DNA of 64,000 nt. Source: Phormidesmis sp. (GTDB taxonomy: Bacteria > Cyanobacteriota > Cyanobacteriia > Leptolyngbyales > Leptolyngbyaceae). The stretch lies in NCBI GenBank assembly GCA_965248535.1, contig CBDFJR010000005.1:768001-832000 (forward strand). The letters are read 5' to 3'. Below are positions 43,684-47,191 of the stretch, piece after piece. The position numbers and the translations under genes were made by a program. Within the stretch, counting starts at the first letter, position 1, and the number at the start of each line of letters is the position of its first letter. A model generated the notes under the pieces. That model searched no databases, had not been told where the DNA came from, and saw only the letters and a program-made list of their open reading frames with translations.

Positions 43684-45870
43684 TCAACTATGGGAATGGG
43701 TGCCGTTGATGGTTTCACGTCCCAAAACGGTGACGGGGGGCTGATGAGATTGCGCCATCATCGCCTCTTCAACCCTGCGCGGCAGATGGATATCTACGCC
43801 GTTAATAATTGCCCCTAGCAGCTTGTGATCGTCTGTTTCGCTGAGATGGTCGATCGCCTCGGTCAAAATGCTTTCTTGGGTCACACCCGGACGGGTGACC
43901 ATCACCAGCCCATCACTATAGGGTTCTAACAGCAGCGCATCATTGCAGCGACTCAAGGCAGGGGTGTCTAGCACGACGAGATCAAATCGCCCTCTGGCAT
44001 CTTCCAAAAGGCGGCGCATCTCGCTTGATTCGAGAATCGAAGCCGCCTGACGCTGCGGCCCCACACTCGGCACCACATAGAGATTTTCGACCTCTGGCGC
44101 AAGCCGAACGCAGTCGCTAATCTGCCCGTAATAGCGCAAGGGTTCTAGAAGGCTGTCGGGGTCGGCTACCAGATTTACGTAGGCTGCTTTGGAGGGCGAT
44201 CGTAGATCTGCCTCAATCAATAGTGTGCGCTTTCCGGCTCTGGCCGACGCGATCGCCAGATTATAGGCGCTGACGGTTTTGCCTTCATCGGCGATCGTGC
44301 TGGTCAACAAGATCACGCGCAGCGTTTTGTTTTCTGTCAAGCGCAGCTTACTGCGGAGCCGTTCATAATAGTCAAAATAAGGAGAATCTGAGCGTACTAA
44401 AACCGGAGAGTCTTTGACATCCCAACTCTTGACCAGCGGCAGTGAGCCGAGCAGGGTAACATCTCGTGATCGCAGGGCCTCCCGCAGATCGTCTTCGGTG
44501 TAGAATTTGCCTTCCATAGTGTCGAGCAGAAAAATTACCCCTCCGCCGACCAGCAAGCCGACCAACCCCCCGATCGCTAGCGTTAGCGGAATGCTCTTAG
44601 AGGCTTTGGGTAGAGTCGGCAGCAGAGACGGCGCTTTGGCGAGATTGAGGCTGCTCACCGTTTCAACTTCGGCGGCTCTGGCATCGACCAGTTTGACCTG
44701 CATCTGATCGTGAAGGGCTTTTTTGAGCCGAACTTGATCTTCTAAGCGGGTGCGTTCTAGCTGGCGATTAGGCACGATCGCAAACTGTTGCCGCAGGGTC
44801 TGCTCCGATCGCACCGTTGAGACTAACTGCTGCTGCAAGACATCCTGTTGAGTTTTGAGACCGACTAGGGTATTGGCTAACTGCTGTCGAGCCGGGTCGA
44901 GACTGCTGTCTTGCCGCACGGTGTTTGCAAAGGGAGCCGCAACCCCGTTGCCGCCCATCACTTCTCTAGCGCGTTTTTGAAGCTGTTCTTCTAAGGTTTG
45001 CTGCTGTTTGCGGAGGTTGATCAAATCGGGATGTTCGGGCCGCAGATCTTTACTTTTAAGGGAAATCTGCGCCTCGACTTGCTGAATCTGGGCCCGCAGG
45101 CTAGCCAAAAGAGGATCGGCACTCAAAGCCGCAGAGACATAGGCCTGATTGGGGTCTAACCCTAGCCGTTGCTCTAAACTGCGAATCTGGGCGTTAGTGC
45201 CATCAAGTTGCAGTTGTAGCTGTCTCTGCTGATTTTCGCTGCCCGTGATGGCACCGATCAGTGTTCCGTTTTGGGCCGCCAGCAGTTGAGGGCCTTCGAC
45301 CCGATCGTAGTCTTCTAACACTTGCTCAGAAGCTCTGAGATCGCTCGACACTTTGGGCAATCGCTGATTGATCGCGTCGATCACGGCTCGCAGTCGGGCT
45401 GAGTTGTTGAGCCGACTCTGTTCGACAATGCGCTGGCTAAATTGTTGAACTACCGCGATCGCTCGTTTGGGGTCTTCGTCACTATAAGAGACACTGACTT
45501 GAGCAGCGCCCCCTGCGGGAGCCGTCTGACCTTTGGCAGCTTTGGGCACATCGACTTCTACCTTGGCGTTTCTCACCACTTCGAGCGGCGGAATGCCGAC
45601 TTCTTTGGCCACCGCTTCGATCATCTCTCTGGGCACGAGCGAGTCGCTGGTAAAGGTTTCGATCGGCTGTCTCAGTTCGGTGCCGATCGTCGAAAAGGCG
45701 ATCGGTGGACGGTTAGAAACCAACAGCGCATTGGCTTGATAGATCCGGGCTGGGTCGGGCAGAGACACCACCACGCCCGCCGCCGCCATGCCCAAAAACA
45801 CCCCGGCTGGGATGGCCCACTTATAGCGATCGACGGCCAGCAGATAGCGCTTAACGATTGGCGGAGTCAT
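43684..45870 (-). CDS. wzc: Wzc/GumC polysaccharide co-polymerase with tyrosine-kinase-like domain
   Basis: Two TM helices around coiled coils, STIADEGKT, IEADLR, VLDTP. Confidence 0.85.
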   Translation of the reverse strand: MTPPIVKRYLLAVDRYKWAIPAGVFLGMAAAGVVVSLPDPARIYQANALLVSNRPPIAFSTIGTELRQPIETFTSDSLVPREMIEAVAKEVGIPPLEVVRNAKVEVDVPKAAKGQTAPAGGAAQVSVSYSDEDPKRAIAVVQQFSQRIVEQSRLNNSARLRAVIDAINQRLPKVSSDLRASEQVLEDYDRVEGPQLLAAQNGTLIGAITGSENQQRQLQLQLDGTNAQIRSLEQRLGLDPNQAYVSAALSADPLLASLRAQIQQVEAQISLKSKDLRPEHPDLINLRKQQQTLEEQLQKRAREVMGGNGVAAPFANTVRQDSSLDPARQQLANTLVGLKTQQDVLQQQLVSTVRSEQTLRQQFAIVPNRQLERTRLEDQVRLKKALHDQMQVKLVDARAAEVETVSSLNLAKAPSLLPTLPKASKSIPLTLAIGGLVGLLVGGGVIFLLDTMEGKFYTEDDLREALRSRDVTLLGSLPLVKSWDVKDSPVLVRSDSPYFDYYERLRSKLRLTENKTLRVILLTSTIADEGKTVSAYNLAIASARAGKRTLLIEADLRSPSKAAYVNLVADPDSLLEPLRYYGQISDCVRLAPEVENLYVVPSVGPQRQAASILESSEMRRLLEDARGRFDLVVLDTPALSRCNDALLLEPYSDGLVMVTRPGVTQESILTEAIDHLSETDDHKLLGAIINGVDIHLPRRVEEAMMAQSHQPPVTVLGRETINGTHSHS

Positions 45871-47191
45871 AGAACCTCGTGATACGTGGGAAACTCAGTG
45901 TCTTCAGACCTGAGAGGAAAACGGTTGCTTCGCAGTTCCGCAAAGGGGTAATCGCGTGGTTTTAACCACCGTATTCTTTCTGGATGAGTTATAATTGACT
46001 CATGACTCAATCCCTGTCTGTGAAATGTAAGCTGATAGTCCCTTCTAACTTTCGTCCACAAATTGACGAGACGTTGGAAGGGTTTTCGCTTGCCTGTAAT
46101 CAGATCTTGGAAGTCGCAAAACGTGAGAATTGCTGGAACACCACGAAGCTTCACCATCTGGTTTATAAACCAGTTAGAGAGGCAACGGGGTTGAAAGCAA
46201 ACCATGTTTGCCAAGCGATTCGTCGCGTGATTGGCAACGTCAAAGCCGTCAAACAAGTCCACAAATTTAGACCCACCTCTTTGAGTCTGGACGTTCGCAC
46301 GTTCAAGTATGTGGAGGAAAGTCAAACCGTCGGAGTCACCCTCAAGTCTGGACGAGTTCAATTTGCCCTGTCTATTGGGGGCTATCAAATCGCCTTGCTC
46401 AGAGGTCAAACTTTGACCAGTGCAACGCTGAACAAAACCAAAAAAGGCGACTACTACGTCAACTTTGTAGTTGAGCTTGAAACGCCGCCTACTGGCAAAA
46501 CTCCCAAGGTAATTGGGGTTGATTTGGGACGGCGTGACATTGCCACAACCAGCACTGAAAAGAGTTGGAGTGGAGAGAAGATTCAATCTGTCCGTGACCG
46601 ATATAGCAAGGTCAGAGCCAACGTTCAATCCAAACGCACTCGGTCTAGTCGCAGACTGACGAGACGGCTTTCTGGGAGAGAACGGCGGTTTCAGGAATGG
46701 TTGAATCACAACATCAGCAAGCAACTCGTGCAAGACGCTAAATCGCAGAATGCAGCCCTGGCTTTTGAAGACTTGACCCACATCAGAGAGAGTCTGAACC
46801 AGAAGCCTAGAAGCAAAGTAGAGCGACGTAGAACCAATAATTGGGCGTTCTATCAACTCCGCTTGTTCGTGGGCTACAAGGCTGCAATCGCGGGGGTTGC
46901 TGTAATTTTCGTGCCACCTGCTTACACAATCTCAAACCTGCAACCGATGCGGACATCTTCACCCCGTCAAAGGGAAAAGTTATCGCAACGGGAAGCGGTT
47001 TAAGTGTGGTCACTGCGGGTTTGAGCATGATGCTGACGTGAATGCGGCTAAGAATATTGCTGCTTTGGGGTTGTCTGTAAGCCAGCCCGAAAGTCCGGGG
47101 CTGAGTTGTCAACTAGCGGGTCAGATGACCCTCTTTCCGACGATTCAAAACTGTGGCTAAAGCTCAGTCCCTTTAAGGCTGAGTTGCTTAC
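45871..47191 (+). mobile_element. non-autonomous IS200/IS605 element inserted 3' of TCAT
   Basis: Left-end guide GAAA 45890-45893 with CTCAG/CTGAG stem predicts TCAT (45867-45870); right-end guide AAAG 47159-47162 with CTCAG/CTGAG stem predicts terminal TTAC (47188-47191). Confidence 0.88.
46002..47160 (+). pseudogene. tnpB: TnpB with a +1 frameshift before the Zn finger and RuvC-III
   Basis: GVDLG, AFEDL; removing one A at 46928-46929 restores AYTSQTCNRCG...CGHCG...DADVNAAKNI, ending at TAA 47160. Confidence 0.88.

Follow-up and report, generated by a model that had tools for sequence, protein, structure and literature searches.

Opposite the tnpB gene and left end of a TnpB-only IS200/IS605 transposon of Phormidesmis sp. 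runs a reading frame that selection keeps free of stop codons and that ends, in the majority of related copies with a placed boundary, on or beside an ATG supplied by the target site. The copy described here lies between a wza-like and a wzc-like gene of polysaccharide export, in a stretch of 64,000 nucleotides (nt) of contig CBDFJR010000005.1 (positions 768,001 to 832,000, forward strand), called the window below and numbered from its first letter. Because TCAT, the target-adjacent motif (TAM) of this element, is the complement of ATGA, the element often stands directly upstream of a start codon, in backward orientation. An earlier note on this DNA, the original prediction, proposed that the element keeps its antisense frame open so as to deliver ribosomes to any start codon beside which it inserts. 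We put at roughly 0.55 the probability that the antisense frame and the left end (LE) together work as a translational-coupling module, by which ribosomes could still reach and translate the host gene despite the element in front of it. For a broader proposition our confidence falls somewhat short of even odds: that whole TnpB lineages carry a portable reverse-strand translation bridge co-adapted with TCAT, that the GTAA of the reversed right end (RE) restores the stop of the upstream gene, and that insertion at start codons or ATGA junctions would thereby leave operon translation largely working.

Selection against antisense stops is seen in relatives of the window element, 189 of which were found in species-representative genomes; the best 80 (69-85% identity, GC content 0.37-0.50) were kept. 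Isolates of Nostoc, Anabaena and Microcoleus are among the carriers. Codons were counted in the 67 genes intact over 345 codons, the remaining 13 of the 80 having been dropped because of contig ends or stops. The codons TTA, CTA and TCA, which are stops on the opposite strand, are almost absent, in agreement with the original prediction: 28 occur in 23,115 tnpB codons in frame, and the same triplets number 1,640 and 1,352 of 23,048 in the other two frames of these genes. Their share in tnpB is 0.12%, versus 5.7% in adjacent host open reading frames (ORFs). In the host genes that adjoin the relatives, TTA accounts for 30% of Leu codons, CTA for another 12%, and TCA for 15% of Ser codons; by the same measures the values for tnpB are 0.6%, 0.4% and 0.7%. 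Each relative has 0-4 such codons over its whole tnpB, mostly past codon 345. Among A-ending codons the depletion is limited to CTA, TCA and TTA, with the others at normal use, and selection therefore removes exactly the antisense-stop codons.

The end of the frame is placed as well as its interior. For the 79 loci with enough upstream DNA, the TCAT boundary was set by homology to copies with unlike flanks in 62, and the 17 lacking such a boundary were excluded. The proposal that the left end holds a constant phase to TCAT was borne out in part: in 37 of the 62 loci the frame stops 0-5 nt from the ATG of the TAM, the stop being either the TCA of the TAM itself or a codon 3-5 nt inside the LE, while in the other 25 it does not. 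Shuffled LEs gave a stop at the ATG in 4.6 +/- 1.9 loci, and in no more than 11 in any of 2000 shuffles. Of the 12 LE families, whose LE-encoded tails range from 78 to 254 nt, 8 show the pattern, and LE families in other phases bring a terminal stop of their own, TCAT/CTAA and TCATC/TCAA. A Shine-Dalgarno (SD)-like core is also present at this end. With the last 20 nt of the LE read on the reverse strand, GGAG, GAGG or AGGA precedes the TAM ATG by 4-10 nt in 35 of 62 loci, compared with 2.5 +/- 1.5 in shuffled LEs. The same core is found in 2.2% of other LE windows, at 12 of 75 nearby host gene starts, and in 2 of 26 displaced host leaders. In the TCAT lineage designated clade B, the ends read ...GGAGGTTTTCG/ATGA.

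Insertion sites are enriched for start codons. Empty sites were rebuilt for 61 loci by taking the RE as finishing at the first CTTAC or TTTAC after the gene, a rule that was confirmed in the window and in multi-copy sets but may misplace the end at some loci. With a start-codon site defined as the ATG of an ORF of at least 85 codons with at most 25 upstream codons, 26 of the 61 are start-codon sites, 22 are intergenic and 13 fall inside ORFs; the start-codon class makes up 5.3% of all ATGA sites in the element's own genome, or 3.8% in the same loci. If start-codon and intergenic sites alone are considered, the figure is 26/48, versus a null of 0.28 (p = 1.3e-4) or 0.14 (p = 6e-11). Pfam domains are present in 15 of 18 ORFs of this kind, with the N-terminal domains starting at profile position 1-2. 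At 17 of the 26 start-codon sites a co-directional ORF lies no more than 400 nt upstream. Six sites (L002, L004, L019, L035, L065 and L072) are ATGA overlaps of two genes. The RE, which there as in the window always finishes TTAC, is GTAA when reversed and gives the upstream gene the reading xxG TAA, an in-frame TAA at the old position. Intergenic copies show no bias of orientation towards the next gene (10 vs 7). Two copies in different genera, L028 and L069, share a site at the start of a Wzy_C-type gene, with LEs of 114 and 116 nt, and the window copy is likewise in a polysaccharide export cluster.

The window copy and its surroundings comprise the following features.

43684..45870, minus strand: wzc-like gene, 728 residues, CbiA/AAA_31 P-loop domain; its start codon adjoins the element
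45867..45870, plus strand: target-adjacent motif TCAT, complement ATGA
45871..46001, plus strand: left end, 131 nt, boundary from empty sites and a contig joint
45875..45878, minus strand: SD-like GAGG, 4 nt 5' of the wzc ATG, contributed by the LE of the element
45990..45995, plus strand: TATAAT, 6 nt 5' of the tnpB ATG, from direct reading
46002..47160, plus strand: tnpB, with one extra base at about 46929
45867..46856, minus strand: antisense open frame, downstream piece, 329 residues, the ORF originally noted
46807..47112, minus strand: antisense open frame, upstream piece, 101 residues, holding the conserved ATG 47028..47026
47161..47191, plus strand: right end, with terminal TTAC at 47188-47191; the complement begins GTAA
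47192..47230, minus strand: original wza-wzc spacer, 39 nt, now apart from the wzc ATG
47231..48394, minus strand: wza-like polysaccharide export gene, Poly_export and SLBB domains, upstream of wzc and co-directional with it

What the original prediction had said of the 329-residue ORF proved accurate. It is codon-aligned to tnpB (46854-46002 = 852 = 3 x 284), and none of the first 285 tnpB codons is TTA, CTA or TCA, despite 25 Leu and 23 Ser codons among them; the frame then crosses the LE and stops on a TGA (45869..45867) that overlaps the wzc ATG (45870..45868). Without the extra base the antisense frame would extend from 47112 to 45867, 415 codons in all. The other tnpB of the window (8877-10091, plus strand), as also stated, has no such frame and contains 20 TTA/CTA/TCA codons, against 15 expected. 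The 329-residue ORF is, however, a fragment, in that the antisense ATG conserved in relatives sits in the other piece (47112-46807); the frameshift in tnpB breaks the frame in two, so that the window copy keeps only the SD-like motif, ATG and the downstream piece. By the codon usage of the genome, 25 Leu and 23 Ser codons free of all three triplets have P = 1.5e-5, and such a run is present in 7 of 2,070 long ORFs of that genome; runs of at least 250 codons are found in 14 ORFs, 7 of which are tnpB loci. At three places in the same genome (C2:1901879-1903123, C5:1902794-1904038 and C5:1037907-1039349) the stop-free antisense ORF is longer than tnpB, so that a gene caller favoring the longest ORF picks the wrong strand.

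The limits of the element are fixed by comparison with uninserted sites. Seven same-genus genomes carry wza, then a spacer of about 39-41 nt, then ATGACTCC, without anything between, reading ...GCTGCT/ATGACTCC; because these sites lack it, the element is delimited as 45871-47191, 1321 bp, between the spacer and the wzc ATG. The same empty-site comparison finds the wzc start kept in relatives. Contigs of runs X1 and X2 have a joint from 45870 to 47192 at which 1321 bases are skipped, and neither these nor the seven empty sites show any target duplication. Contigs in X1, X2 and X4 are without the extra base at 46929. Uninserted alleles and intact copies thus both exist. Runs X1 and X2 hold both inserted and uninserted forms of the wza-wzc junction, and the insertion may be polymorphic or recent. 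By direct reading, the RE finishes GCTTAC, the LE adjoins TCAT, and a hairpin CTCAG..CTGAG is present in both the LE (45894-45914) and the RE (47163-47183), with similar hairpins in relatives; the LE has a second hairpin at 45956-45969. The plus strand of the spacer, 47192..47230, would be the sequence matched by a TnpB guide.

In operons, translational coupling takes place at ATGA overlaps of stop and start, and the proposed mechanism would place such a junction at the edge of the transposon. Insertion at such a site separates the host start codon from its own leader. In exchange the element would bring a reverse-strand module that begins at a conserved ATG close to the tnpB 3' end, has no stop across tnpB and the LE, and ends with an SD-like GGAG or GAGG in its last codons and a stop overlapping or adjoining the host ATG. 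Host or read-through transcripts would cross the element, and ribosomes translating the junk frame would open the LE hairpins; termination at the ATG could then be followed by re-initiation, or the freed SD could serve new initiation. In this way the frame would be translated and would raise expression downstream, the coupling junction being rebuilt from the target motif at every insertion. Ordinary operon coupling has the same layout, an upstream frame that closes at or next to the ATG of the following gene and carries an SD within its last codons, but here that frame is the reverse strand of a transposon nuclease gene, and part of the junction comes from the target motif.

The upstream limit of the frame can be approached from the relatives. 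Antisense stops recur at tnpB codons ~345-372, so the frame starts below that point. All 62 relatives that have His opposite the antisense ATG at 47028..47026 encode it by CAT, and a second His codon, likewise a reverse-strand ATG, is CAT in 54 of 58; other His columns are mostly CAC, and the synonymous sites beside the two CAT codons vary. The preference does not extend to clade B, with CAT in 9 and CAC in 9. An antisense -10-like TAATAT 5' of the conserved ATG, found solely where relatives have ATT at one codon and missing from the window, was dropped as a candidate.

Comparison of TnpB clades by target motif covered the element's own genome and 200 genomes of the class. In the former, TCAT clades have 0-2 TTA/CTA/TCA codons versus 10-14 expected, whereas a four-copy clade that targets TTTAAC has 19-20 versus 15 expected. 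To this clade belongs the other tnpB of the window (404 residues), whose LE adjoins TTTAAC and whose RE finishes GTTCAC. Across the class, all 28 of 28 TTTAAC members have a normal level of antisense-stop codons, and in TCAT clade B no more than five occur in 17 of the 21 members. To this extent the expectation that depletion follows TCAT was upheld. It fails for a clade of proteins of 413-415 residues whose TAM is apparently not TCAT, in which all 5 close members and 13 of 21 distant ones are depleted too. Four loci of this clade in the window's own genome (C5:725504-726748, C5:1220886-1222130, C2:391483-392706 and C5:1864407-1865630) have 1-3 antisense stops against ~12-14 expected, and the frame ends inside the LE or on a TTA at the apparent boundary.

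That last clade weighs against the coupling reading, and so do a number of other observations. In clade B, many of the stops lie 21-57 nt before the start of tnpB. Among the 62 loci with a placed boundary, 12 have an early stop inside the LE, and in 13 the frame reads through past the element with the host gene out of frame. By a tally of rows, the stop abuts the ATG at 17 of 26 start-codon insertions and at about 19 of 35 others, which is no enrichment. Four Microcoleus copies (L067, L070, L071 and L074) have an intact tnpB and a broken antisense frame, and the window copy itself is split by the tnpB frameshift. Direct reading finds no SD before the conserved antisense ATG, and the CCTC motif of the LE, the complement of GAGG, could serve transposase recognition at the DNA level instead. 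Finally, since the relatives share ancestry, the counts overstate their independence.

Because a clade with a TAM apparently other than TCAT keeps the frame open, the frame may serve a wider role than coupling at an ATG. The main rival takes this view: translation of the antisense strand would itself matter, with ribosome cover blocking decay of read-through transcripts or their pairing with tnpB mRNA or guide RNA, and the ATG and SD at the LE would be secondary. The depletion in that clade and the clade B frames that stop soon after the tnpB start both suit such a role, as does the lack of constraint on the antisense product described below; the co-directional ORFs close upstream of 17 of the 26 start-codon sites make read-through plausible. 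Left unexplained are the stop at the ATG (37/62 vs 4.6), the SD-like core (35/62 vs 2.5) and the excess of start-codon sites, and we regard this alternative as unlikely, though it deserves more weight than any that follows. A constraint on DNA or RNA, arising from the needs of the transposase or the guide RNA and excluding the three triplets for reasons unrelated to translation, would find some encouragement in the CCTC near the LE end, a possible transposase signal, and in invariant codons in the 3' part of tnpB (GTA 66/66 and GGG 65/65 in relatives), which point to an RNA-level constraint there. It would not predict a depletion limited to one of three frames over ~345 codons while adjacent synonymous sites vary freely, and its probability appears very small.

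Were the antisense frame a true overlapping gene with a protein useful to the element, one could understand why relatives keep it open over 340-430 codons with a conserved ATG, and why gene callers have predicted its product, in 10 unnamed entries among 5.8 billion public proteins. The protein does not evolve as this would lead one to expect. Its identity is 38-47% where TnpB identity is 65-80%, and in pairs at 60-70% identity it is 38%, with codon identity at identical TnpB residues of 0.475, against 0.39 for random codons; because tnpB synonymous sites are near saturation, the antisense protein diverges much faster than TnpB, and this codon identity comparison came out against purifying selection on it. 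None of 40 antisense members matches any Pfam family. AlphaFold2, given a 40-sequence alignment, returned no confident fold (pLDDT 32, pTM 0.16), a missing fold being weak evidence, and the LE-encoded tail varies in length by the amount given above. An overlapping gene is accordingly rated improbable. The original prediction had retained as its null explanation that codon bias or chance alone gives a shadow ORF, and the codon-aligned antisense frame is indeed where long chance ORFs are expected. This null is refuted by the P value under the genome's own codon usage, by host use of TTA, CTA and TCA far above that in tnpB, and by the normal levels of these codons in other tnpB clades of the same genome; we assign it almost no probability.

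Coupling across the element, as proposed here, may be set beside systems already described. Like other TnpB-only (IS1341-type) IS200/IS605 elements, this one has OrfB_IS605 and TNB domains, subterminal hairpins at both ends, insertion 3' of a short fixed motif without target duplication, and Y1 transposase genes elsewhere in the genome. Unlike them, it has an antisense frame actively kept free of stops and a conserved antisense ATG, together with an SD-like motif and stop at the LE, and nearly half of the copies are at start codons. Full-text literature searches turned up no account of antisense frames in TnpB elements or of coupling by them. Closest in print is the IStron, an IS607 or IS605 element with a group I intron that, according to PMC10690162, splices itself out of mRNA. 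IStrons are likewise TnpB transposons with a device limiting the cost to the interrupted host gene; in the element described here no intron was detected (no Rfam match in 44000-49000), and the device proposed for it would act at translation. Insertion sequences (ISs) have been reported by Plague 2010 (PMC2942039) to be fewest between divergently oriented genes. Both that study and our results have selection shaping where IS copies persist, but its divergent-gene class has a gene start on both sides, and here 26 of 61 copies stand exactly at a start codon.

If coupling across the element is real, a selfish element would lower its cost in a new way, ribosomes crossing it to reach the host start codon, with neither avoidance of genes nor splicing out. 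It would be a counterpart, at the level of translation, of the self-splicing IStron, and would explain how RNA-guided nuclease elements persist at start codons and in operons. Few other cases would show so plainly that selection can act on a reading frame while its product seems not to matter, and the implied connection between target motif and the grammar of host genes could be put to the test. Annotators would be warned against treating the long ORF on the strand opposite tnpB as an ordinary gene, and those who build constructs could gain a compact part for insertions that do not silence downstream genes.

The tnpB of the window copy is read in one frame from 46002 to ~46927 and in a C-terminal frame from 46915 to the stop at 47158-47160. 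It matches Pfam OrfB_IS605 (PF01385) at 7.8e-9, and its C-terminal piece scores 48.7 bits against the TNB domain; PF07282 fell below cut-off in a first Pfam search because of the frameshift. Its translation contains GVDLG, AFEDL and HDADVNAA, candidate sites of the catalytic acidic residues of RuvC type. The genome has 11 Y1_Tnp matches and about 26 tnpB genes, and a Y1 transposase would thus appear to be available in trans. No Rfam family matched 44000-49000 at E <= 1, with neither a guide RNA nor a group I intron named; a consensus scan of 45700-47400 gave no promoters, and no minus-strand terminator-like site was found inside the element. The TATAAT before tnpB lies in GGATGAGTTAYAAT, which is kept in relatives. 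It is probably the -10 box of tnpB, in which case the tnpB mRNA may be leaderless. Over the last ~50 tnpB codons some synonymous positions do not vary at all, a hint of an RNA there, a candidate guide or omega RNA.

A second element of the same genome, at C5:1567925-1568407, has an LE 86% identical over 121 nt to that of the window copy. It had been considered a "solo" left end, a description rejected because a frameshifted Y1 tnpA, encoded on the opposite strand, comes after the LE, which is thus part of an element. By coordinate arithmetic, the tnpA frame is out of phase with the TCA at that site. This element, too, adjoins a host start codon, the ATG of a gene for a protein with the N terminus MSLRIYGNRL.

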